Shown here: one piece after another, positions 7,419 to 21,270 of the stretch
Position numbering within the stretch: the first letter of the stretch is position 1
Layout of the letters: every line of letters starts with the position of its first letter
Assembly (NCBI GenBank): GCA_012523135.1
Contig: JAAYJD010000214.1
Location: 1 to 53,671 of the forward strand
Source of the DNA: Clostridiaceae bacterium
Lineage (GTDB): Bacteria; Bacillota; Clostridia; Saccharofermentanales; UBA5734
Direction: 5' to 3'
Length of the DNA: 53,671 nt
Translations under genes and position numbers: made by a program
Notes under the pieces: generated by a model
What the model saw: the letters and a program-made list of their open reading frames with translations, nothing else
Told to the model about the DNA's origin: nothing
The model's database searches: none

Positions 7419-8092
7419 CCGCGGCGCCTGTTCAGCAGGGACATCGCCTCGGAGCGCGACCGGGCGTCCCGCTTGCACAGGCCGCGCAAGGCAGATGTGA
7501 CCGTCAGCGAGCCTGGTTTGCGGATGCCGCGCATGGTCATGCACAGGTGCTCGGCCTCGACGATCACCGCGACGCCCATCGGCCGGACCGCCTCGACCAT
7601 CGTGTCCGCGATCTGCGAGGTCAGCCGTTCCTGAAGCTGCGGTTTACGCGACATCACATCGACGATGCGGGCGATCTTGCTCAGGCCGAGGATGCGGCCG
7701 CCATCCGGGATGTAAACCACATGCGCGCGCCCGATAAACGGCAGCAGGTGGTGCTCGCACATCGAATAGAACGGGATATCGCCCACCATGATCATTTCAT
7801 CGTGATCCTTCTCGTGGAACACCTTGATCACATCGCGGACATCGACATGCAGGCCGGCGAACAGCTCGTCATACATGCGGGCGACGCGCGACGGGGTGTC
7901 GAGCAAGCCTTCGCGCTCCGGGTCCTCCCCGATCGCCAGCAGGATTTCCCGCACGGCTTTCTCGATGCGGGGCAGATCAACATAGGGCGCACGCCCCTGG
8001 CTGGCGCAGGAAAACGACTCCAGGTCATCGGTATCGACGGCGTCGTACATGATCGGGTCGCGGTTTGTTGTTTCAGGTTCGTTCACGTTCAT
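7415..8092 (-). CDS. folE: GTP cyclohydrolase I
   Basis: [42 protein letters not shown]. Confidence 0.97.
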
Positions 8093-9056
8093 GTCCTTTC
8101 TGGCCGCCCTGGATTTGGCGGCGGTACTGCATGGGGGTCATGCCGATGTGCTTGCGGAAAGCCGCGTTGAAACGCTGCGGGCTGGAAAAGCCGACCTGGG
8201 TAGCGATGCCGCTGACCTTGATGTCTTTTTGTTCCAGCAGTTTGCAGGCGTGGTCGACCCGGATCTGCATCAGGAACGTCATCGGGCTCATGCCGGTTTC
8301 GTCGCGGAAAGCGCGGGTGAAGTAGCCCTGGCTGAGGAACACGTAAGCCGCGACATCGGAAATCGACAAATCACGGTCGTGATTCTCCACGATGTAGTCG
8401 CGGGCGATCTTGACCAGTTCGCGTGCTTTGCCGCTCCGGACACGCAGGCTTTCCTCCCATTCCTCACGCAGGCCCCGGGCCAGCACAACCAGGAGCTCCA
8501 TGGCCAGCAGCTGCATCACCAGCTCGCGTCCGTAAGCTTCCTTCCTGTTTTCCCGCAGGATACGCTCGACCAGCGCGGCAATATCCTGCCGGCTGCGGCC
8601 GCGCAGCAGCAGGTAAGGCTCGGCGGGCTTTCCCCCTTCGGGCGCTTCGTTTCCTGAGGCAAAATGGATGAACTGCTCCAGCGTCTGGGGCGCGATGTCG
8701 GTCGAGCGCAGGGGCGTATCCTGCGCCTGACCCGGCACCAAGCCGTGGCGGGAAAAGCCGAAATAGAGCACCATCATGTCGGCGGAGCCGTCCAGGACAC
8801 GGATGCTGTGCGCGCTGCGCGGCCGAATCACCAGCGTGGCGCCTTTTTCGATCAGGACGCGCTTGCCTTCGATCAGAAATTCAGCTTTGCCGCTGCGCAT
8901 GTAGGTCAGTTCGTGGTGGTCGTGGCGGCTGGGGTGCGTCATGGTCGCAGAACGTTCAAAGGACCTTTCGATCCCTTTGAAAACAACCGGTATGGAGCCG
9001 GCGGCATCCATGATGCCTTTTTCGACAGCCGGCAAGAGATCTTCAAACATGCGCAT
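8073..9056 (-). CDS. AraC-family regulator with N-terminal cupin domain
   Basis: Cupin HDHHELTYM and PRSAH. C-terminal double HTH ([36 protein letters not shown]). Overlaps the folE start by 20 nt. Confidence 0.92.
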
Positions 9057-9131: not shown

Positions 9132-9770
9132 TTATTCGTTGACGACCGCCAGCCGGATGCTGTAATGGATATCTGCATAGGCCAGCAGCGCCGCCTCCGC
9201 CGCCGACAAGTCCAGGCAGAGCAGCAGGTCGCCGCCCTGCGGGCTGGCCAGGACCGCCGAACTGCCTTGCGCCGAGCCGTCGAGCACCCGCAGCACAGCG
9301 ATGTTTTTCAACACCTGCACCGGTTCATTGACCGCACCACGCGGAACCAGATGCAGATCGACCCGGCAGCCGGCGGCTAGCCAGTAGCCGTTGGCCGAAG
9401 CACGGTCAAGGCGCAGCGTCATCAGCCGCCGTCCCGGACCCGGACCGGGATATTGGATGCCTTCCGGCTGGTCGTTTAAACGGCGGGTATGCAATATCTC
9501 GCCTTCAGCCAGTCCGGTCGGTGTCCACAGCCCGACCGCGGCCTCCGGATCCATAAGCCATTCGGAATGGACGCTCTCCGCCGGGATCCGGACCGTTGTG
9601 ACATCCTCCGCTGCCAGCGAAGCGCCGGCGGGGATGTCACGTCGCGCGACGGCGACCGATGTCCATTCAACCTGCGGCCGGGACGCGCCAGCCAGCCAGG
9701 ACAGGCCCGCCAGGATAACCGTCGCAGCCAGCGTCAGCAAGATTTGCTTTGTGCGTTGCATCGCGCTCAC
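9132..9770 (-). CDS. cpaB: Flp pilus assembly protein CpaB/RcpC (SAF domain)
   Basis: N-terminal TM, VAVARRDIPAG SAF motif, GEIL, GCRVDLHL, VLKNIAVL. Last gene of the tad cluster. Confidence 0.85.
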   Translation of the reverse strand: MSAMQRTKQILLTLAATVILAGLSWLAGASRPQVEWTSVAVARRDIPAGASLAAEDVTTVRIPAESVHSEWLMDPEAAVGLWTPTGLAEGEILHTRRLNDQPEGIQYPGPGPGRRLMTLRLDRASANGYWLAAGCRVDLHLVPRGAVNEPVQVLKNIAVLRVLDGSAQGSSAVLASPQGGDLLLCLDLSAAEAALLAYADIHYSIRLAVVNE

Positions 9771-9792: not shown

Positions 9793-10284
9793 CTAGTCAA
9801 TCAGGATCTCCAGGGCTTGGCGGATCAGGACCGTCTGACCGTCCGGCAGCGTCAGGATCGCGTTGATCTGGACGATCGGCTGGCTGTCCGGCTGTCGTTC
9901 CTGCATCCAGTGGTCGGGTTCGTAATCCAGGTAATGCGTGTAAAAACGGATACTGTTCAGTTCCAGGCGATCGGCCAACAGGGTTGGCATCCGTGCCGAG
10001 AAGGTTTCATCCAGCAAAGCGCGGCCGCTGACCGACAGGATTTTGGCCTGCCCTTCCGACAGGCTGGCCGGGTCCAGGCACAGGCAGGCGGCCGGCAGGA
10101 TCTGCTCGACGTGCTGATGGGATCTGACCACCAGCACATGGCTGTAGGCCTTCTGCACCGCCTGGACCCCGAGCGGGATCAAAAGCAGCAGGCAGAACCC
10201 GGCCACGAGCAAAACGGATCCTACGGAACCGTTTCTGTTGTGTAGACGCGGCAGTCCAGTTGAATCGCGCAGGTAAATTGCCAT
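9793..10284 (-). CDS. Putative Tad minor pilin/pseudopilin (TadE/TadG-like); start uncertain
   Basis: Basic leader RLHNRNG|S followed by a hydrophobic helix. Position within the tad cluster. Confidence 0.6.
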   Translation of the reverse strand: MAIYLRDSTGLPRLHNRNGSVGSVLLVAGFCLLLLIPLGVQAVQKAYSHVLVVRSHQHVEQILPAACLCLDPASLSEGQAKILSVSGRALLDETFSARMPTLLADRLELNSIRFYTHYLDYEPDHWMQERQPDSQPIVQINAILTLPDGQTVLIRQALEILID

Positions 10285-10610
10285 GTGGCCTCCTCCATGC
10301 CTAAATCCGCGCGGATGCGCTGTCCGGGACAGGCGGCCTTTACCGTGAGCAGCATGGTCTGGCCAAAGGACGCCCGCTCAGGCGCCTGCACCTGGAGCAC
10401 CGTAAAATGACGGGTTTCCAGTTCGGCGACCAGAGCCGCGGCGGCCGTCTGGGACAAGCCACCGGACTGGTCCATGACGCGCGCGTAGTGGTGGCACACG
10501 GCGTCAAACTCGATGCGCTTGAACAGGGGCAGGCTGCACAGCAGCAGCGCCAGCACCAAAGCTGTCATGATAAACAACCCGAACACCGCAGCCAGCAGCC
10601 GTCCGATCAT
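10221..10610 (-). CDS. Putative Tad-associated membrane protein / minor pilin
   Basis: N-terminal hydrophobic helix, then a small soluble domain (MDQSGGLS). Follows the pilin gene. Confidence 0.6.
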   Translation of the reverse strand: MIGRLLAAVFGLFIMTALVLALLLCSLPLFKRIEFDAVCHHYARVMDQSGGLSQTAAAALVAELETRHFTVLQVQAPERASFGQTMLLTVKAACPGQRIRADLGMEEATWQFTCAIQLDCRVYTTETVP

Positions 10611-10709: not shown

Positions 10710-10958
10710 TTACGTGCCGGTTGTAAAGATGGTCGTCGCCATGTCGTTCCACCAGGTCGTCAGATTGCCCATCAGACTGGTGGCAAAGGTCTTAAGCCCC
10801 GGAATGACGATGACAGCCGCGATGATGATGCCGGCCGCGATGCCGATCACCTCGTTGAGGCCGAATCCGTTGCGTTTGCGGATGCGCATCAGCTTGAATG
10901 CGCGCTTCCTCGTCAGGTCGTGCAGGCGGCTGCGCCCGCGGGGGTTGCGTTGTCTCAT
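10710..10958 (-). CDS. Flp-type major prepilin (82 aa; 31-aa basic leader, 51-aa mature)
   Basis: GGAGG RBS before ATG at 10958. Class III signal KRNG|FGLNE with Glu at +5, followed by a hydrophobic helix. Confidence 0.85.
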   Translation of the reverse strand: MRQRNPRGRSRLHDLTRKRAFKLMRIRKRNGFGLNEVIGIAAGIIIAAVIVIPGLKTFATSLMGNLTTWWNDMATTIFTTGT

Positions 10959-11003
10959 GTCCAAACCTCCCATTAGTTATTGCCGGCAGTCCCGGGACTG
11001 CAT

Positions 11004-11873
11004 TCAGCCGAAAATCATGTCCAGCGCGCTCAGCGCCCCCTGGACAAGCGGATAGAGAAACAGGACGGCCACCGGAACCAGCCCGGCCGCGGCCGTCCAT
11101 ACCAGGCGATGGCGTACGCGGTTTGTTTCAACCTGCATCTGGCTGAAAAAACGGGCAAACAGCAGGTCTTCCATGCGCTGCATGCTCTTGCCCGCGACAC
11201 CGGTCTGCAGGCACTGCCGGATGTTGGCCTGAAGCAGATCGACATCCTGACCCGAAAAGGATTGCCGAATCACGGTGAAAGCCTGCTCCATGTCACAGGT
11301 CACTTCGAAGATCGCGGTAAATCGGATCAGCACCGGTTGGACAACGCGGTCGCGGACGGCCTCCGGCAAGCCACGCAGCGCGTCGGTTACCGCAACGCCG
11401 GATAGGATCTGGCTTTCGAGAAAGCGGTACACTTTGTAGAGGCTGCGCGAGAATGCCTGCTGCCGTTTGCGCACCCGGATTTGAACGGTATTGTTGACCC
11501 ATGCGGCAAGCCCGGCAGCGGATGCGACGGGGATCCAAGGCGATGGATGGGTCAGCAGCCCATAGGCAAGCAGGAAGACCGGAATCCCCAGCTGCGCCAG
11601 AAGGTACAGTTCCAGTGCCAGGGGGTGATGGTAACCTGCCTTTTGCAGGAACAGACGGATCCGGGCGGCAAATCTGCGCGCTTGCAGCGCGGACAGCCAG
11701 CCCGGCTGAAAAGCGGCTGTTCGGCCAGGCTGGTTGTCCAGTGCGGCCTGGGCCAGGCGCGGATCCAGGCTGCGAAGCCAGGCGGGCAGCAGATGATACA
11801 GGCAAACAAACAGCGCCAGGCCTGCCGGAAGCAGGATGAGCATGACCTGCATCGCACCGCGATCCATCTTCAT
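11004..11873 (-). CDS. tadC: TadC-like T2SS-F platform protein
   Basis: N-terminal TM, central TM pair, T2SSF-like soluble domain, C-terminal TM (LFLYPLV). Follows tadB. Confidence 0.75.
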   Translation of the reverse strand: MKMDRGAMQVMLILLPAGLALFVCLYHLLPAWLRSLDPRLAQAALDNQPGRTAAFQPGWLSALQARRFAARIRLFLQKAGYHHPLALELYLLAQLGIPVFLLAYGLLTHPSPWIPVASAAGLAAWVNNTVQIRVRKRQQAFSRSLYKVYRFLESQILSGVAVTDALRGLPEAVRDRVVQPVLIRFTAIFEVTCDMEQAFTVIRQSFSGQDVDLLQANIRQCLQTGVAGKSMQRMEDLLFARFFSQMQVETNRVRHRLVWTAAAGLVPVAVLFLYPLVQGALSALDMIFG

Positions 11874-12439
11874 TGTCCGATCCTGTGCTGGATCAGGCAG
11901 AACGCGGCGACCGCCGCCAGATAGCTGAGGATACCGAACGCTGACAGCATCCGGCCGGCCGGGCTGACCGTAAACAGCTGCAGCAGGCCAGGACTCGTCC
12001 CCAGGCGCAGCAGGCAGCTGGCCGGGACTGCCAGCAGGACCAGCCCGGTCAGCTGGCGATCGTGCGCGTTGGACAGCTTGCGACGGGTATACTCCTCTTC
12101 GATCCGGTTCAGCTGCCAGGCCAGGTGCTCAAGCAGCATGGGCAGATCACCGCGGTAACGCAGATTGAATCGAAGGGCCACCAACAGGTCCTGGAAATGC
12201 TCGTGGCTGATGTTTTGGCGCATCAGGTCCAGGGCCTGTTCGACGGCCATCCCCCCGCGCACACGGGTGACAAAAGCAGAGACCGCCGCGCGCATCGGCT
12301 GGTCCAGGCCGCCGTCCAGGCATTTCTGGCAGGCATAAAGCAGGTCTTCACGAACCTGGCACCACCTGCTCAGCGAGTTGGTCAGCTGGAGCGTCTGCTG
12401 ACGAATCCGGACCGTCTGGCCAGGCCACGTCCATTTCAT
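11870..12439 (-). CDS. tadB: TadB-like T2SS-F platform protein (short, 189 aa)
   Basis: T2SSF-like helical domain (VEQALDLM, RGDLPMLL) followed by two TMs. GGGAGGAG RBS. Follows tadA. Confidence 0.7.
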   Translation of the reverse strand: MKWTWPGQTVRIRQQTLQLTNSLSRWCQVREDLLYACQKCLDGGLDQPMRAAVSAFVTRVRGGMAVEQALDLMRQNISHEHFQDLLVALRFNLRYRGDLPMLLEHLAWQLNRIEEEYTRRKLSNAHDRQLTGLVLLAVPASCLLRLGTSPGLLQLFTVSPAGRMLSAFGILSYLAAVAAFCLIQHRIGQ

Positions 12440-13649
12440 AGTGATCAGTCTCCTCCCGATATCCGTGAATCACAACGATTCTGGCGACTTTGAACTGTTT
12501 GAGGCAAACGACAATGTCCAGGCTGCTGCCGATCATGCGGCGCAAGGTCCTGTCGCTTTCTCCGCGCGAAGCCGGCCGGGCAAGGGCCAGCAGGCGGTCC
12601 GGCACCTCTTCCGGCCGGTCCGCATGTATCGTACCCAGGCAGCGGTGACCCGAGAAGGCAGCATGGATAAAAGCCAGCGCCTCATCACCGACGATTTCGC
12701 CGATGCAGTAGGCATCCAGCGACATGGTCAGTCCGTCGCGGACCAGATCGTACAGGCTGACCGGACGGCCGCCCTCGTGCGGCTTCTTGATGCGCTGCAG
12801 CAGGCAGCAGGGTTTTTCCGGGTACAGTTCGCTGTCGCTTTCGGCGACCAGCACGCGCTCCAGACGCGGCAACGCTTCCAGAAAGGCCCGCAGCAACGTT
12901 GTCTTGCCAGCCGCGCCCTTGCCGCAGAAAAGGACGGAGCGTCCTTCTTCGGCCCAGTGCCGCAGCCGATCCGCAACCGCCTGATCGAACATGCCGCTGG
13001 CTTGCAGATCCGGCAGGTGCAGCGATTTTTGTCGGTGCTTGCGGATGCTGAGCGTCGGATAACGGACACTGCGCGGCGGAATGGTCACATTGATGCGCAG
13101 GCGGTTCTGTTCGTCTGTCACGCGGCAGTGGCTGTCATTCTCGTTGATTTGACCGCCGTTGCGGATGACCAGGAGGCGGCAGAACGTGTCATAGGTTTGA
13201 GCGTCCGGAAACCGTAATGGCAGCAACTGGCGGACCCCGTCCCTCTTGATCGTGAAGGCATCCGGAGCCGTGGCGTCCACATCGGTGACCGCTTCATCCA
13301 GGATGCAGGCCTGCAGCGGACCGTAGCCGAACAGGAAATCCATCACCTGCTGCTGCAGGTCCCTGCGGAAAAACCCGGCCCGGACACTGACCTGGTCGGC
13401 GGTGCGGGCGATGATGTCCCACAGCGCCTGGCGGGGAACCTTGTGGGCGGCGACGGCGGCGACCGTGGCGGCATCTGACTGCAGGATCTGGCTGCACACG
13501 GTCGCGACCAGCGCCTGCAGATCTGGCTGCACTGGTTCCGGACCGTCGGAGCTGGCCTGGTCCATCAGGAGCAGCGGCCGGCCGGCTGCATTTGACTGGA
13601 CTTCCTGCAGCTTGCGGGCCAGCCAGGCGTGGGATGAAACGACAGGCAT
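12348..13649 (-). CDS. tadA: Tad secretion ATPase TadA/CpaF
   Basis: YGPLQ, VTDVD, LSIRKHR, Walker A GKGAAGKTT, Walker B CIGEI, GH..LGTIHA His box. Confidence 0.92.
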   Translation of the reverse strand: MPVVSSHAWLARKLQEVQSNAAGRPLLLMDQASSDGPEPVQPDLQALVATVCSQILQSDAATVAAVAAHKVPRQALWDIIARTADQVSVRAGFFRRDLQQQVMDFLFGYGPLQACILDEAVTDVDATAPDAFTIKRDGVRQLLPLRFPDAQTYDTFCRLLVIRNGGQINENDSHCRVTDEQNRLRINVTIPPRSVRYPTLSIRKHRQKSLHLPDLQASGMFDQAVADRLRHWAEEGRSVLFCGKGAAGKTTLLRAFLEALPRLERVLVAESDSELYPEKPCCLLQRIKKPHEGGRPVSLYDLVRDGLTMSLDAYCIGEIVGDEALAFIHAAFSGHRCLGTIHADRPEEVPDRLLALARPASRGESDRTLRRMIGSSLDIVVCLKQFKVARIVVIHGYREETDHYEMDVAWPDGPDSSADAPADQLAEQVVPGS

Positions 13650-13650
13650 G

Positions 13651-15246
13651 TCACGTGTCTCCTTTCCTGGGTAAGCGCGGCAAATCGAGCTGTTCGACCA
13701 GGCGGCCGTATTCGGCTTTGTTCTTGTCGCTGAGCGCAGCCGCGTAAGGCCGCGTGCGGCGGCCGGCTGCCCGTTTCACGCTCGCCGAAATCCGCCCAGC
13801 CAGGCGATTGTCGCAAAGTTCAGCCATGGTGCTGCCGCTCAAGTCGTGCTGACGGTCACTGGGGAAAGCGACATAGTGCAAACGGTCAAGCGGCAGGTGA
13901 TGGCGGCTGATCAAAAAATCGACCATCCGGTTGACTTCCCGGAACGTACCCAGTTCCGCCTTGAGCGGCACAACAATCCGGTCGGCCGTCAGCAGGGCCA
14001 GGCAGGTGAAGGCGTCGAAGATAGTCCGGTTGACCAGCACCAGGACCAGATCCGCCAGCAGCTGCGCGGTCTGAATAACCTGGTGCAGCGAATCCAGGTG
14101 CACATATTCGTAATCTTCCAGCTTGACCGTGCCGGCGAGCAGACGCACTCGGGAGATCGCGGTGTCCTGCGCCAGGGTGCGCAGGAGCTGCGGCGTCAGG
14201 CGCCCTTGCTGCTGGGCCTGCAGCGCGGCTTCCAACCCGCAGGATTGTCCGGGCGGCCGGTTGCGGTACAGGTGACCTGGTACGCCAAGCAGCAGGTCAG
14301 CCCGCGGGTTGAGCAGGTTGGCGTCGATGACGAGAACATCGCAGCTGCCGGCCAGGCACGCGGCCAGCTCGCAACCGCAGGCGGGACCATCCCAGACACA
14401 CAGCAGGGGTGCGGCCAGGCGGACGGGTTCCGGCTGCGCTTCCTCCCGGGTCACTGCCGTCTCCCCGGTGTGTTCCGGTGACTGCCGGCCGATGCGCTCC
14501 AGCGCAAAGGCCAATTCATCAGCCTGGTCCAGGCGCTGGCCGGGATCCGCGTGCAGGCAGCGGCTGAGCAGGCTTTGCAGAGCATCTGGCACATGGGCTG
14601 CCGCCTGGCTGACCGGCAGGGACCGGCAGCGCTCAGGCGATCTGCCGGTCAGCAAGACCAACGCGGTCAGGCCAAGCGCATAGAGATCGCTGCCCGCCCC
14701 GCAGCCTCTGCCAGCTTGTTCCGGCGCGGCATACTGGGGCGTCAAGGCCTGCGGGGTATCCGCGGCGTAGGCCACCGGTGGCCTTTCTTCGTCAGACTGC
14801 AGGAACCGCGCCGCGCCGAAATCGATCAGTCCGGCACGGTTACGCTCGTCGATGACCAGGTTGTCCGGCTTGATGTCGAGATGCGCCAGGGGCTGTTCAT
14901 TTTGCTGATGCAGATAAACCAGGGCCCGGGCCCATTGCAGCAGCCAGGGCAGTACCTGCTGCCAGGGCAGACCGCCGGGCTCGCCGGCCAGGATCTCCTG
15001 GGCGGTCCGGCCAGGCAGGAAGGAAAAAACAGCATACCAGGTGCCCGTATCGTCACAGGTCTGGCCCAGGCAGCGGGGAACACCGGGGTGCCAGGCCTCC
15101 GCCAGCCATTCTGGAACCCTGGGATCGACAAACGAGTCCAACCGCTTGAGCACGACGGGGCGCCCATCGCCATCGCGGGCCAGAAACCCGGCAGATAGCG
15201 TTTTTTCCTGCCGATATCCGTTCCATGCCAGCTTCTCCAGTGCCAT
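13651..15246 (-). CDS. Hanks-type Ser/Thr kinase fused to a degenerate ParA/MinD-like (CpaE/TadZ-type) domain (531 aa)
   Basis: VVLK, HLDIKPDN, DFG, TPQYAAPEQ, SDLYALG. C-terminal VLVIDANLLNPRADLLLG, LLAGT, LLTADRIVVPL. ATG at 15246 with AGGAGG RBS. Confidence 0.85.
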   Translation of the reverse strand: MALEKLAWNGYRQEKTLSAGFLARDGDGRPVVLKRLDSFVDPRVPEWLAEAWHPGVPRCLGQTCDDTGTWYAVFSFLPGRTAQEILAGEPGGLPWQQVLPWLLQWARALVYLHQQNEQPLAHLDIKPDNLVIDERNRAGLIDFGAARFLQSDEERPPVAYAADTPQALTPQYAAPEQAGRGCGAGSDLYALGLTALVLLTGRSPERCRSLPVSQAAAHVPDALQSLLSRCLHADPGQRLDQADELAFALERIGRQSPEHTGETAVTREEAQPEPVRLAAPLLCVWDGPACGCELAACLAGSCDVLVIDANLLNPRADLLLGVPGHLYRNRPPGQSCGLEAALQAQQQGRLTPQLLRTLAQDTAISRVRLLAGTVKLEDYEYVHLDSLHQVIQTAQLLADLVLVLVNRTIFDAFTCLALLTADRIVVPLKAELGTFREVNRMVDFLISRHHLPLDRLHYVAFPSDRQHDLSGSTMAELCDNRLAGRISASVKRAAGRRTRPYAAALSDKNKAEYGRLVEQLDLPRLPRKGDT

Positions 15247-15308
15247 GCGGTTCCTCCTGTGATCCCGGTCTCCGGCCGCTCCAGTTTGTCTTAGGGTTGA
15301 GCATAACG

Positions 15309-15335
15309 AAAAAGAGCACCCTTGCGGATGCTCTT
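15309..15335 (-). terminator. Intrinsic terminator after clpX
   Basis: AAGAGCATCC-GCAA-GGGTGCTCTT followed by a T-run on the minus strand. Confidence 0.8.
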
Positions 15336-15369
15336 GATGCGACAAATGGGGACAACAGCCGTTAATCGG

Positions 15370-16725
15370 TCAGGCGGACTTGTCGGTCTTCAAGATGACC
15401 TCGGGCGGTTTCTCGCCAGTTACGCTCTCCCGGGTGATGATACAACGGGCCACGTCGCTGCGCGAGGGCAGTTCAAACATGATGTCCATCATGATCTCTT
15501 CCAGGATGGCGCGCAGCCCGCGGGCGCCCGTGTTGCGCTCCAGGGCCTGGCGGGCGATTTCCTGGACGGCGTCCGGTTCAAAGGACAGCGCGACGCCGTC
15601 GTAGTCGAACAGCTTCTTGTACTGCTTGACCAGGGCGTTGCGCGGTTCCTGCAGGATGCGGATCAGCATGGCCTCAGACAGGCCTTCCAGCGGCACGATC
15701 ACCGGCAGGCGGCCGATGAACTCGGGGATCAGGCCGAATTTCAACAGGTCCTGCGGCATGATGTCCGCCAGGATCTGGCCGACATCTTTCTCCTTGCGGC
15801 TCTCGATGATGGCACCGAAGCCGATCGACTTCTTGCCGGTGCGGTTCTGGATGATCTTCTCCAGGCCGTCAAAGGCGCCGCCGCAGATAAAGAGGATGTT
15901 GGTCGTATCGATCTGGATGAACTCCTGGTGCGGATGCTTGCGGCCGCCCTGCGGCGGCACGTTGGCAATCGAGCTTTCCAGGATCTTCAGCAAGGCCTGC
16001 TGTACGCCTTCACCGCTGACATCGCGGGTGATCGACGGATTGTCGGATTTCCGGGTGATCTTATCGATCTCATCGATGTAGATGATGCCCCGCTGAGCTC
16101 GCTCGATATCGAAATCGGCGTTCTGGATCAGCTTGAGCAGGATGTTCTCGACGTCCTCGCCGACATAGCCGGCTTCGGTCAGCGCGGTCGCGTCCGCGAT
16201 GGCAAACGGCACATCGAGGATGCGCGCCAGCGTCTGGGCCATCAGGGTCTTGCCGCAGCCGGTCGGTCCGATCAGGAGGATGTTGCTTTTTGTCAGCTCG
16301 ACCTCTTCCTCCGCGTCCTTGGCTGCCTTGCCCTTTTTGGTGGTTACTTTGGCGTCGCGCGAGCTGTTCTCGGCGAAAACGCGCTTATAATGATTGTACA
16401 CGGCGACGGCCAAAGCTTTCTTGGCCCGGTCCTGCCCGATGATGTACTGGTCGAGCGCTTCCTTGATTTTGGCCGGCGACATCAGCTCGGCAGGCGCCTT
16501 GGCAGCGTCGCCCAGGTTCTGCTCATTCTGGCCGTCCTGGAGGATGTCGTCGCACAGGGCGACGCACTCGTTGCAGATAAAAACACCCGGACCGGCGATC
16601 AGGCGGGCAACCTGGCGCTCCGTCTTGCCGCAGAACGAACAGCTGACCGGATTGTAGCGATCGTCCTGTCCGCCGCTTTTGCCGGTGCGGCCCGGGTTCT
16701 TGCCCTTGTTGTTACCATCTGCCAT
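15370..16725 (-). CDS. clpX: ATP-dependent Clp protease ATP-binding subunit ClpX
   Basis: CSFCGK...CNECVALC zinc domain, [25 protein letters not shown] loop, GARGLR. Confidence 0.98.
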
Positions 16726-16727
16726 GA

Positions 16728-17312
16728 TCAGGCCCTCTTGTCCATGATCTGGTCGATAATCCCGTAATTCACGGCTTCTTCCGCTGTCATCCAGTTGTCG
16801 CGCTCGGTGTCGATCGCGATTTTATCCAGGGGCTGGTTGCAACGTTCGGCCAGAATCCTGTTCAGCCGCTCACGCATCCGGATGATGTGTTCGGCGGCGA
16901 TACGGATATCGGACGCCTGACCCTGGGCACCGCCGGATGGCTGGTGGATCATGATTTCGGCGTTGGGCAGGGCATAGCGCTTGCCCGGTGTGCCGGCCGC
17001 TAGGAGGAATGCGCCCATGCTGGCCGCCATGCCCATGCAGATGGTCTGGACATCGGCCTTGATGTACTGCATGGTGTCGAAAATCATCAGGCCCGAGGAA
17101 ACCTCTCCGCCGGGGCTGTTGATATAGAACTGGATGTCCTTGTCCGGATCCTCCGCCTCCAGGAACAGCAGTTGGGCTGTGATCAGGCTGGCGGTTACCG
17201 AATTGACTTCATCGCTGAGGATGATGATGCGCTCCTTCAGCAGGCGGGAAAAAATGTCATAGGACCGCTCACCGCGGTTGGTTTGTTCGACGACGATGGG
17301 GACGAGACTCAT
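16728..17312 (-). CDS. clpP: Clp protease proteolytic subunit (194 aa)
   Basis: [10 protein letters not shown] start with GAAAGGAG RBS, YINSPGG, GMAASMG, MIHQP. Confidence 0.98.
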
Positions 17313-17327
17313 ATCGATCGCTCCTTT

Positions 17328-17361
17328 CAAAAGAGCAGGGCTGCCCGGCGGCAAGCCCTGC
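17328..17361 (-). terminator. Hairpin plus short U-tract between tig and clpP
   Basis: GCAGGGCT...AGCCCTGC stem followed by TCTTTTG on the minus strand. Confidence 0.55.
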
Positions 17362-17373
17362 CTGTTATAACGT

Positions 17374-18747
17374 TCAGGTTGTGCTTTCCGCTTCGGCTGG
17401 GTTGTCTTCGCCAGCGTCAGGGGCTGTTTCTTCCGATTTTTCCGGTTCCGGCGGCGGGGCGACCGGAACAGCTTTTTCGACCAGCATGGCCACCGTCTTG
17501 CGATGCACGACGGCATCGGCGACAAAATTGTCCTCGCCGTCAACCGGCAAACGTGCCTTGAGGTCCTCGGCGCTCATGCCGTACTGCGTGGCCATCGTCT
17601 CGATCTCGGCGGCAATCTCCTCTTCGGTCGCTGTCACGTTCTCGGCCTTGGCGATTGCCTCGAGCACCAGCCGGGTCCGGATACGCTGCTCGGCAGGCTC
17701 ATGAAGCTGCGCTTTAAACCCATCGGCTGTCTGGCCCATGTAGCTGAGGTACTGCTCCATCTCGAAACCCTGATAGCGCATCTGGTTGCTCTGCTCGTCG
17801 TACATGCGATCCATTTCCTGGTGGATCATGACATGCGGGACGTCCACTTCCGCGTTTGCTGTGACGGCCTGGATTACGTTCTCTTCAAACATGCCGTTCG
17901 CCCGCTGGGCGGCGTTTTCCTCCTGCTTCTTGCGCAGGCTCTCCTTGTATTCGGCGAGGGTGTCGAACTCGCTGACATCTTTGGCAAATTCGTCATCCAG
18001 CTCGGGCAGCTCGTTCATCTTGACCGAATTGACCGTGACGGCGAAAACAGCCTGTTTGCCAGCCAGATCCTCGTTGTTGTAATCATCGGGGAACTGGACG
18101 TCGATGTCGAACGACTCGCCGTTGTTGTGACCGATCAGCTGCTCTTCAAAACCCGGGATAAAGGTTTTGGAGCCGATCTTCAGATCGTAGGACGCACCCT
18201 TGCCGCCATCGAACGGCACACCATCCACGGAGCCCTCGTAATCGATGTTGGCGGTGTCGCCGTCCTGGATCGGGCGGTCTTCGACCGGGATCAGGCGGCT
18301 GTTGCGTTCCTGCATGCGCTTGAGTTCCTGCTCGACGGACGCGTCGTCAACCGGGAATTCCGGCTTGACAGCCTCAACCCCCTGGTACTGGCCCAAGGTT
18401 ACCTCCGGCTTGACCGTGACGGTTACCGTGAACTTCAGGCCTTTGTCGCGGCCGATATCCAGAACATCCAACTCGGGCTGTGAAACCGGTTCGATGCCGT
18501 GCTCTTTGATCGCCTCGGCATAGGCTGGATTGACAGCCATGTCGAGCGCATCTTCATAAAGGACGCCTTCGCCGTAGTATTTGGTGACCAGCGCCATCGG
18601 CGCTTTACCCTTGCGAAAGCCCGGAATCATGAATTGGTTGGCGTTTTTCTTGAATGAACGCTGCAGCGCCTCGTTAAAGACCTCAGCTGATAAATCAATG
18701 GTCAATACGACCTTGTGTTCTTCCTTTTTCTCCAGCACAGATGCCAT
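17374..18747 (-). CDS. tig: Trigger factor
   Basis: [10 protein letters not shown] ribosome-binding motif and FKBP domain ([15 protein letters not shown]). tig-clpP-clpX synteny. Confidence 0.97.
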
Positions 18748-18800
18748 TGCATTAATCCTCCCACACGGCACAAATAGGCCAATCTTGCAAATGCTCCAAG

Positions 18801-18829
18801 ATTCTAACATAGCCGCCCGTGCTTGTAAA
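18801..18829 (-). promoter_or_regulatory. Putative sigma-A promoter of tig
   Basis: TTTACA (18829-18824), 17-bp spacer, TAGAAT (18806-18801), with an extended -10 TG. Confidence 0.6.
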
Positions 18830-18976
18830 GGAACAAACGGTACTGGAACAGCCATTTTTGAGATATTGTTTGACTTTTTTTGACGTTAACATGGCCTTGC
18901 CTGCCGGACCGGACACGTGGCGTCGCGGTAACAGGCGTGCTACAATAACGGCAGCAGCAGATAGGGAGGTATCGCC

Positions 18977-20463: not shown

Positions 20464-21270
20464 ATGTCCGATTTGTTCTGGATCCTCTACCGAATCGTTT
20501 TCGGCGCCTTGTTTGGCCTGCTCATCGGCAGCTTCCTCAATGTTTGCATCTACCGTCTGCCGCGCCATGAGACCATCGTCCGGGGACACTCGTATTGCCC
20601 CGGCTGCCATCATGAGCTGACCGGCGCCGACCTGGTTCCCATCTTCAGCTACCTGTTCCTGCGCGGGCGCTGCCGCTATTGCGCACAGCCCATCTCACCG
20701 CGCTATGCCCGGATCGAATCGGTAACGGGCGTTATCTTCGCCCTGCCCGCCGGCTTTTGGGGCGGCGGACCGTTCGCCCCCGCCGCCGACAAGCCGGCCT
20801 GGCTGGCCATCCTGCCGGATCCGGGGTATAACGCATTGGTCATCGTCGGCGTGCTGGCAGCTTTCTGTGCCCTTCTGGTCTGGGCAATGATCCTCTTCGA
20901 TGAGCAGCTGCCGCCGCGGGCCCTGTACGGTTTCATCCTGGTTCCGGCGCTGCTGCGCCTGGCGCTCCAGCCTGACCGGATCTTGCTGCACCTGGCCGGC
21001 GCGGCGTTTGCCGCTGCCGTCTGGTGGCTTCTGGAGACACTGCGTTTGCTGCCCGAAATCGATCGATCCAGGCGCCGTCACGTGTTTTTCGGACTGGCCC
21101 TGCTCGGTCTGACCGGCGGCCTGATCGCCCTGCAGCCGGTCATGGCCGCGATGCTGGTCGCGTCCGTCCTGGCTTTGCTGGCCAAGAAGCCAGAACACGC
21201 CAGCCGGCTGGTGCATCTGCTCCTGCCGGCAGCGGTTCTGGCTTCAGCTGTCCTGTGGCTGTTTCTCTAA
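20464..21270 (+). CDS. PilD/A24-like prepilin peptidase homologue with intact Zn-binding N-domain and degenerate catalytic motifs
   Basis: IGSFLNVCIYRLP, SYCPGC, LVPIFSY, GRCRYC, ISPRY. No recognisable xID or GxGD motif in the membrane domain. Confidence 0.8.
   Translation: MSDLFWILYRIVFGALFGLLIGSFLNVCIYRLPRHETIVRGHSYCPGCHHELTGADLVPIFSYLFLRGRCRYCAQPISPRYARIESVTGVIFALPAGFWGGGPFAPAADKPAWLAILPDPGYNALVIVGVLAAFCALLVWAMILFDEQLPPRALYGFILVPALLRLALQPDRILLHLAGAAFAAAVWWLLETLRLLPEIDRSRRRHVFFGLALLGLTGGLIALQPVMAAMLVASVLALLAKKPEHASRLVHLLLPAAVLASAVLWLFL

Follow-up and report, generated by a model that had tools for sequence, protein, structure and literature searches.

A kinase-fold domain joined to a P-loop-less ParA/MinD-like domain heads Tad-type pilus operons of uncultured Clostridia

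Introduction

What kind of protein heads a Tad-type pilus operon when the gene directly upstream of the motor gene tadA, the usual place of tadZ/cpaE, encodes a protein-kinase fold joined to a ParA/MinD-like domain? Such a fusion gene lies at 13651-15246 on the reverse strand of contig JAAYJD010000214.1 (assembly GCA_012523135.1), a stretch of 53,671 nt, here called the window, from an uncultured Clostridia bacterium of an anaerobic digester. Of the core parts of Tad pili, TadZ/CpaE is the least understood; its presumed roles are to position the machine and, through ATP-dependent dimers with a pseudo-receiver domain, to form a ring around the CpaF motor. We find that the fusion is a real and conserved variant of this Tad hub, new to the searchable literature, and that the window holds a form of it in which the kinase is degenerate. 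With a probability of roughly 0.6, the protein is in our view the counterpart of TadZ/CpaE, the cytoplasmic hub of a Tad-type (type IVc) pilus machine in a Gram-positive organism, and its kinase domain, probably impaired, serves as a regulatory or scaffold module.

In Caulobacter, six CpaE dimers are arranged around the CpaF hexamer, the receiver domains appear to connect adjacent dimers, and CpaE carries a C-terminal amphipathic membrane-targeting helix (PMC13170226). As that paper summarizes Xu et al. (2012), TadZ has a deviant Walker A motif and binds ATP for dimerization. A first-pass annotation of the window proposed that a cytoplasmic protein kinase here takes the place of the receiver domain, so that pilus assembly or localization may be switched by Ser/Thr phosphorylation.

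Results

Architecture of the fusion protein

The 531-residue product consists of two folded domains and a linker. The N-terminal domain (residues 1-255; 14482-15246; reverse strand, as for all features below unless stated otherwise) is a Hanks-kinase fold. It matches Pfam Pkinase (PF00069) at E 9.7e-21, with 74.8 bits against a cut-off of 31.7, and its best structural match in Foldseek is PknB (5u94; E 3e-15, target-normalized template modelling (TM) score 0.73), with other protein kinases next. The Pkinase match spans profile positions 65-253 only, meaning that the N-lobe is divergent; in the AlphaFold2 (AF2) model this lobe has five strands and a short alphaC helix, at a predicted local distance difference test score (pLDDT) above 90. 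The motifs VVLK (residues 31-34), HLDIKPDN (122-129; 14860-14883), DFG (142-144), APE (174-176) and SDLYALG (186-192) are all present, and K34, D124, K126, N129, D142 and APE are retained. The Glu of alphaC is replaced by Val44, the kinase is non-RD (HLD), and the Gly-rich loop is absent, being deleted when the domain is aligned with canonical relatives. Among the features of the Hanks family, the protein therefore shows the profile match, the bilobal fold, an HRDxKxxN-type catalytic loop, DFG and APE, and lacks GxGxxG and the bridge between the beta3 Lys and the alphaC Glu. These results bear out the first-pass annotation, which had called an N-terminal Hanks kinase that is non-RD and without a clear Gly-rich loop; all nine motifs that it quoted are found in the product. 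Its statement that the protein has no transmembrane segment likewise agrees with our analysis of the 531 residues, in which the most hydrophobic windows correspond to buried strands of the C-terminal domain.

A linker predicted to be disordered (residues 256-279; 14410-14481; pLDDT below 50 at residues 259-275) leads to the C-terminal domain (residues 280-520; 13687-14409), which the AF2 domain model and Foldseek assign to the ParA/MinD fold and which we call TadZ-like. The full-length model, built with 51 homologues, has a mean pLDDT of 88 and a predicted TM score (pTM) of 0.54, so that no confident packing between the two domains can be read from it. Foldseek with this model returned kinases only, and the C-terminal domain was therefore modelled and searched separately. 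Alone it is predicted at pLDDT 89 and pTM 0.89, and its best match is the ParA-family ATPase 3ea0 (E 1.4e-9, TM scores 0.76/0.80). TM scores were 0.70-0.80 against 3ea0 and MinD and 0.62-0.70 against FlhG, FleN and Soj, and the further matches comprised MinD from five organisms, FlhG, FleN, Soj, McdA and NifH. The assignment of this half to the ParA/MinD superfamily, previously made from motifs, is thus upheld by the separate structural model.

At the level of sequence, this relationship is remote. The C-terminal half has no Pfam or NCBIfam match of its own, and phmmer with this half against the PDB found MinD alone, at E 1.5. With a profile of the C-domain family there were weak PDB matches, all of them to ParA, MinD or bacterial tyrosine kinase (BY-kinase) chains, while a profile of its distant non-kinase relatives reached MinD at 7e-7 and 3ea0 at 1e-5; 14 of 47 such relatives match Pfam AAA_31. 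The window protein itself matches none of the AAA_31, CbiA and TadZ_N models of Pfam and NCBIfam, and a whole-genome search with Pfam TadZ_N (PF16968) found no match in any genome, control genomes included, and so says nothing either way. The TadZ of Eubacterium rectale (PDB 3fkq) was absent from all sequence searches and from the 50 fold matches listed. Of the profile searches that had been suggested as a check, the one for Pkinase was therefore positive, while no CpaE, TadZ or ParA model of Pfam or NCBIfam recognized the protein.

The position of the deviant Walker A motif of ParA, MinD and TadZ (KGGxGK[ST]) is occupied by WDGPACGCELAA (residues 285-296; 14359-14394), in the beta1-alpha1 loop of the fold. 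The WDGPACGCELA found here contains no Lys, Ser or Thr, and WDGxxFGCELA is nearly invariant across the family. Canonical nucleotide binding is consequently not expected, and the earlier reading of a replaced P-loop stands. The remaining motifs of this domain are VLVIDANLLNP (residues 304-314), LLAGT (369-373) and ADRIVVPL (421-428).

An exchangeable N-terminal module

Four arrangements of the C-domain are seen. It can follow a degenerate kinase (the form of the window), a fully canonical Hanks kinase or a different domain of about 150 residues, and it can stand alone. The canonical form carries GxGGMG, AIK, the alphaC Glu, YRDxKPSN, DFG and GTRGYAAPE, and matches Pfam at E 1e-49. A C-domain profile searched against 1.8 billion representative sequences recovered 337 relatives. 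Of the best 150 of these, the 136 newly found ones were classified: 40 are kinase fusions, 58 have another N-terminal domain (9 of which match a receiver-like profile) and 38 have none, some of the last being fragments. For one receiver-type relative, phmmer against the PDB gave no meaningful match, and a profile of the N-domain only was needed; with it, the non-kinase N-domain matched 3a0u (E 4e-4), followed by NtrC1, EvgA, VraR, Spo0F and CheY, and nearly all of the 40 matches were receivers. The acceptor Asp is not kept in this receiver-like domain, its column holding Ser or Asn. By these profiles, the non-kinase relatives have the classical layout of TadZ, with a degenerate ParA-like domain behind an atypical receiver.

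In a tree of C-domains, a degenerate-kinase clade of 29 rows, including the window protein, stands apart from a canonical-kinase sister clade of 31 rows, within which the receiver-type forms (four) and the domain-alone form (one) nest. The tree has no outgroup and gives no direction for the swap of the N-terminal module. Since the same C-domain is found with a kinase or a receiver at its N-terminus, the two are interchangeable modules. The proposal that a kinase stands here where TadZ has its receiver is accordingly strengthened by close relatives that carry either an atypical receiver or a canonical kinase in the same slot before tadA.

Linkage to tadA and reality of the fusion

The protein search yielded about 55 full-length homologues, and a scan using one genome per species yielded 70 loci, nearly all in Clostridia metagenome-assembled genomes (MAGs), with Saccharofermentans, Mageeibacillus, Oscillospiraceae, Hungateiclostridiaceae and Acetivibrionales among the hosts. 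In about 60 species the fusion lies directly 5' of tadA, and the order homologue-tadA-tadB-tadC-pilin is seen in every locus with sufficient downstream DNA. Across 41 related genomes, the tadA orthologue and the C-domain are found in an identical set of 24, where they are adjacent; the window's own family accounts for all of these (24 of its 25 genomes), and the 16 genomes that represent other families of the order have neither. Among 399 genomes sampled evenly over the class, 29 carry the C-domain. Source annotations call the homologues only "protein kinase", "hypothetical protein" or "BcsQ". The suggested survey of gene neighbourhoods thus ties the fusion homologues to tadA. In the window, the stop codon of the fusion gene and the tadA ATG at 13649 are separated by a single nucleotide, so that the gene does abut tadA as first described.

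Contigs from other studies, X4 (1259 nt) and X7 (991 nt), cross the junction between kinase and C-domain without indels. Ratios of nonsynonymous to synonymous substitution rates (dN/dS), which are rough because dS is high, were 0.10-0.21 for the kinase domain, 0.04-0.18 for the C-domain and 0.44-0.83 for the linker, values that indicate purifying selection on both domains. An assembly artefact, which the first-pass annotation had named as a danger to its reading, is contradicted by the spread of the fusion over some 60 species, by the contigs that cross the junction and by dN/dS well below 1.

The operon's surroundings follow the clades. In the degenerate-kinase clade (loci L001-L031, L046, L047, L053, L056 and L066) it always lies right after clpX, and in the window tig and clpP lie 5' of clpX, the three genes falling within 15370-18855. 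In two sister-clade loci it instead follows genes that, by reading of their translations and with no family search on them, are of flagellar type. Constant placement within a clade fits long vertical inheritance in each clade. Two loci come from MAGs with distant labels: L003 (labelled Kiritimatiellae) holds a Clostridia-type operon with 74-88% identity to the window's proteins, and L059 (labelled Calditrichales) holds a Clostridia-type operon with the receiver-type form of the protein (7605-8927). Both are most likely mis-binned contigs, with horizontal transfer as the alternative.

Selective loss of kinase motifs

To compare the two kinase-bearing clades, we aligned 30 sequences of each. The columns of the Gly-rich loop are gapped or non-Gly in all 30 members of the window's clade, whereas the sister clade has GxGGMG (28) or GxGGMS (2). 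The alphaC Glu and the RD Arg, both invariant in the sister clade, are replaced throughout the window's clade, by Val, Ala or Ile in a shortened alphaC and by Leu (HLD), respectively. The activation-loop Thr, present in all 30 sister sequences, is not conserved. Two further positions are partly eroded: the beta3 Lys (K in 21, R in 9) and the metal-binding Asn (N in 24, H in 6), each fully conserved in the sister clade. The catalytic Asp, the catalytic-loop Lys, the DFG-Asp, the P+1 Thr, APE, the alphaF Asp and the subdomain XI Arg are kept in every sequence of both clades, as is the His of the catalytic loop throughout the window's clade. The alignment shows, then, that the window's clade has lost the elements of the N-lobe that clamp ATP while those of the C-lobe that serve phosphotransfer and substrate contact have remained frozen. 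Arg at the beta3 Lys is a classical kinase-dead substitution. By the triad of VAIK, HRD and DFG residues, the window protein would be classed as a kinase and a third of its clade as pseudokinases.

The genome of the window encodes three more Hanks-type kinases (contig C93, 24513-25121; contig C75, 3971-4561 and 1406-1822). These could act in trans on the hub protein if its own kinase is inactive.

Tail and cysteines of the C-domain

The window protein ends in LDLPRLPRKGDT and has no basic amphipathic tail. Such tails, of 24-63 and mostly 35-50 residues, are found in the sister clade, in the receiver-type forms and in a Mageeibacillus-type sub-clade of the degenerate-kinase clade (L018-L022, L026, L047 and L056). 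In that sub-clade the C-terminal 35-37 residues form an extra basic amphipathic tail (RPVRRTIRFLSRQ) with a hydrophobic moment of about 0.9, a candidate membrane-targeting sequence that may have been gained or lost inside the clade.

Two cysteines are nearly invariant in the window's clade: Cys292 (14371-14373), in the GCELA at the former Walker A position, and Cys415 (14002-14004), in a DAFTC motif after the former Walker B strand. The two would sit close together in a ParA fold. A metal or redox site formed by them was considered and rejected as a feature of the family: Cys415 is absent from the sister clade and neither cysteine is kept in the wider family. Any such role would be specific to the clade.

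The gene start and the Tad operon

Translation of the fusion gene starts at the ATG at 15246 and stops at 13651-13653. A Shine-Dalgarno sequence, AGGAGG (15253-15258), is read directly 6 nt 5' of the ATG. There is an alternative, longer frame that begins with TTG at 15345; because the homologues also begin at the ATG position, and because the TTG frame would traverse the intrinsic terminator of clpX, we take 15246 as the start. This terminator (15312-15335; a 10-bp stem and a T-tract) lies between clpX (15370-16725) and the fusion gene, which is thus the first gene after it, in agreement with the first-pass annotation. Sampled sequence words gave no match in the one metatranscriptome (RNA) run that was searched.

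The gene adjoining the fusion, here as in all loci, encodes a TadA/CpaF-type secretion ATPase (12348-13649), matching Pfam T2SSE at E 5e-20 and the TadA-family model TIGR03819 at E 1e-41, the latter under the model cut-off. It is followed by a tadB-like platform gene (11870-12439; weak T2SSF match, E 8e-5; position kept across loci) and a tadC-like platform gene (11004-11873), which overlaps tadB by 4 nt, has no Pfam match and is assigned by position and by matches to over 50 loci in tblastn. As listed, the tadB frame begins inside tadA and shares 92 nt (12348-12439) with its 3' end, and tblastn finds the same apparent overlap in other loci; the true tadB start probably lies further downstream. 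Next come a candidate Flp-type pilin (10710-10973), 3' of tadC across loci and without a Pfam match, whose translation has the leader ...KRNG/FGLNEVIGIAAG... with Glu at +5 and a processing site G/FGLNE; a small membrane protein in the position of TadE or a minor pilin (10221-10610; position kept, no family match above threshold); a second in the position of TadE/TadF (9793-10284; position kept in closer loci, no family match); and a cpaB/rcpC-like gene, the last of the operon (9132-9770; Pfam SAF E 2e-8, RcpC E 2e-4, TIGR03177 CpaB E 1e-16, under the model cut-off). The operon had been called a complete Tad operon. Profiles bear this out for tadA, cpaB and, weakly, tadB; tadC, the pilin and the two small membrane proteins are identified by position and conservation only. 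No further ParA-like gene lies close to a tad gene in the genome of the window.

About 5 kb from the operon, past clpX-clpP-tig and a gene for a GH4 glycosidase, the plus-strand gene at 20464-21270 encodes a 268-residue membrane protein that matches A24_N_bact, the N-terminal domain of prepilin peptidases, at E 2e-32. Its C-terminal 170 residues show no match to the catalytic Peptidase_A24 domain. This protein may be the Tad pilin peptidase, with a divergent or degenerate catalytic half.

Discussion

The fusion protein shares with TadZ/CpaE a gene placed directly 5' of tadA/cpaF, a C-terminal ParA/MinD fold with a non-standard nucleotide site, and a two-domain layout in which the N-terminal part is a regulatory or interaction module; its own relatives carry an atypical receiver, as TadZ does. 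It differs in that its N-terminus is a protein-kinase fold rather than a receiver, in that WDGPACGCELA, devoid of Lys, Ser and Thr, replaces the deviant Walker A with which TadZ, on the summary cited above, binds ATP, in that it has no C-terminal amphipathic tail and in that it matches no sequence-level TadZ/CpaE model. Because it has no ATP-binding deviant Walker A, no receiver domain and no match to a sequence model, we regard it as a TadZ-like variant and not as a member of the family. Its link to TadZ rests on synteny, on the superfamily fold and on the architecture of its relatives.

Among these relatives, the canonical fusions of the sister clade (e.g. L058, L062 and L051, from Acetivibrionales and Hungateiclostridiaceae MAGs) share the C-domain (WDNAEFGCELA), the place before tadA and the operon order, and differ in having all Hanks motifs, an RD kinase with an activation-loop Thr, and a basic amphipathic C-terminal tail. 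Gone from the window's clade are the Gly-rich loop, the Glu of alphaC and the Arg of the RD motif, and from the window's sub-clade the tail as well. PknB-type Hanks kinases share the fold and, in PknB, provide the best structural match, but the window protein has no transmembrane segment, no PASTA or sensor domain, no Gly-rich loop and no Lys-Glu bridge, and is non-RD. BY-kinases (Wzc/Etk/CapB) and BcsQ-type ParA-like proteins possess Walker A, A' and B motifs, to which BY-kinases add a C-terminal Tyr cluster, whereas the window protein has neither a Walker A motif nor a Tyr cluster in its tail. The match of Etk to the C-domain profile (E 0.004) is weak and local and falls after the Walker A position. 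A BY-kinase or BcsQ identity of the fusion protein is rejected for want of a Walker A.

The bSTK atlas calls kinases by the triad of VAIK-Lys, HRD-Asp and DFG-Asp, and its ActPs2 pseudokinases have Arg at beta3, as does 30% of the window's clade; a term search of the atlas's main text found no ParA-, MinD- or pilus-linked kinase architecture there (bioRxiv 10.1101/2025.01.12.632604). In Bdellovibrio, TadZA is a fusion of TadZ and TadA without a receiver domain, and receiver-like function is supplied in trans by RomR (bioRxiv 10.64898/2026.07.08.737194). That system has no kinase domain but, like ours, shows a TadZ receiver module that is dispensable or replaceable and TadZ functions that can be redistributed among partners, so the modularity of TadZ as such is already known. 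No description of a kinase-TadZ/CpaE fusion was found in the literature searchable in full text, and within that literature the remark that no Tad system of this architecture has been characterized is sustained.

As the hub of the pilus machine, the protein would be co-translated with the TadA motor. Its C-domain would forgo ATP-dependent dimerization and serve as a nucleotide-free adaptor that docks onto the TadA hexamer or around it, in the manner of the CpaE dimers of Caulobacter, while the kinase-fold domain would take over the job of the TadZ receiver, providing contacts between hub subunits as well as regulatory input. Since the window's sub-clade has no basic amphipathic tail, membrane association of the hub would come about through TadA, TadB or TadC and not through a membrane-targeting helix. 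Several observations weigh against this assignment: there is no direct sequence or fold match to TadZ (3fkq), the window protein is without the C-terminal basic amphipathic tail of the other clades of the family and of CpaE (PMC13170226), and domain packing is not confident at a full-length AF2 pTM of 0.54. The view of the kinase as impaired has its own counterweight in D124, K126, D142 and T169, which are invariant although identity within the clade falls to about 30%; this would be unusual in a dead kinase and argues for retained chemistry.

What the kinase domain does is the point at which readings diverge most. Given that none of the 30 sequences keeps the Gly-rich loop, the Glu of alphaC or the RD Arg, and that 9 have Arg at beta3, the domain is no less likely to be a scaffold or pseudokinase than to be catalytic. 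From these motifs, we lean towards a catalytically impaired pseudokinase or ligand-sensing scaffold that derives from, or is sister to, an active kinase-TadZ fusion; that the domain is a weak or atypical yet real phosphotransferase seems to us to have somewhat less than an even chance. Going further, one might picture an active, if atypical, Ser/Thr kinase held at the motor by the ParA-like domain; with TadA, TadB/C, the pilin or itself as substrate, this kinase would switch the assembly or retraction of pili. The catalytic Asp, the catalytic-loop Lys, the DFG-Asp, the P+1 Thr and APE do not vary in the 30 sequences, beta3 is always basic, and a kinase-domain dN/dS of 0.10-0.21 also speaks for it, as does the sister clade, which places all canonical motifs (GxGGMG, AIK, alphaC Glu, YRD, DFG and activation-loop Thr) on the same C-domain before tadA and so makes phospho-control plausible for the family as a whole. 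For the window protein, this reading is put in doubt by the deleted Gly-rich loop and hydrophobic alphaC residue of every clade member, by beta3 Arg in nine sequences and His for the metal-binding Asn in six, and by the lack of an FHA or PP2C partner gene, both in the window's operon and, from the open reading frame listing, on the same strand as the operon at two loci of the sister clade. We consider it unlikely, and the case for a Ser/Thr phospho-switch here appears weaker than the first-pass annotation assumed.

Whether the protein belongs to the pilus machine at all can also be asked, since it could serve signalling or positioning in, for example, transcription, cell division or exopolysaccharide control, in the manner of BcsQ or BY-kinases, and merely share the tad operon. 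One homologue is annotated by JGI as "cellulose biosynthesis protein BcsQ", the weak profile matches include the BY-kinases Etk and Wzc, and TadZ models are not matched directly; set against these are co-occurrence and adjacency with tadA that are perfect in 24 of 24 related genomes and about 60 loci, the single nucleotide between the fusion-gene stop and the tadA start, the absence of another TadZ candidate at the locus, and the need of BY-kinase and BcsQ function for a Walker A motif that is absent here. We judge a role outside the pilus machine to be improbable. An assembly chimera or decaying pseudogene might be suspected in a 366-contig MAG whose gene has degenerate N-lobe motifs, but the same open frame and architecture recur in about 30 species of the window's clade and about 30 of the sister clade, the X4 and X7 contigs of separate studies span the junction intact, dN/dS is far below 1 in both domains and the AF2 model reaches pLDDT 88. 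We give this explanation almost no credence; as far as sequence data allow, it is refuted.

A bolder form of the hub reading can be put forward only tentatively. In the Tad hub of many uncultured Clostridia, a Hanks kinase module may replace both the receiver and the ATP switch of TadZ, and the kinase of the window's lineage, whose catalytic C-lobe is invariant despite the deleted ATP clamp, might then be an unconventional active enzyme or a sensor of nucleotide or phosphate that gates TadA directly. If true, such pili would be built by a machine that carries its own Ser/Thr phospho-switch and runs no nucleotide-dependent ParA cycle.

In conclusion, the family shows that both hallmarks of TadZ are replaceable: the nucleotide loop is gone, and in the slot of the receiver stands a eukaryote-like kinase, which is intact in one large clade and without its ATP clamp in another, with a receiver in its stead in a few lineages. 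It thereby offers a natural series in which to study the function of the N-terminal TadZ module and to ask whether Ser/Thr phosphorylation can control Tad pili post-translationally. The window's clade is in addition a clean case for the study of bacterial pseudokinases, with N-lobe ATP elements lost and catalytic-loop residues invariant over deep divergence. The hosts abound in anaerobic digesters and wastewater reactors, settings in which particle adhesion is important.

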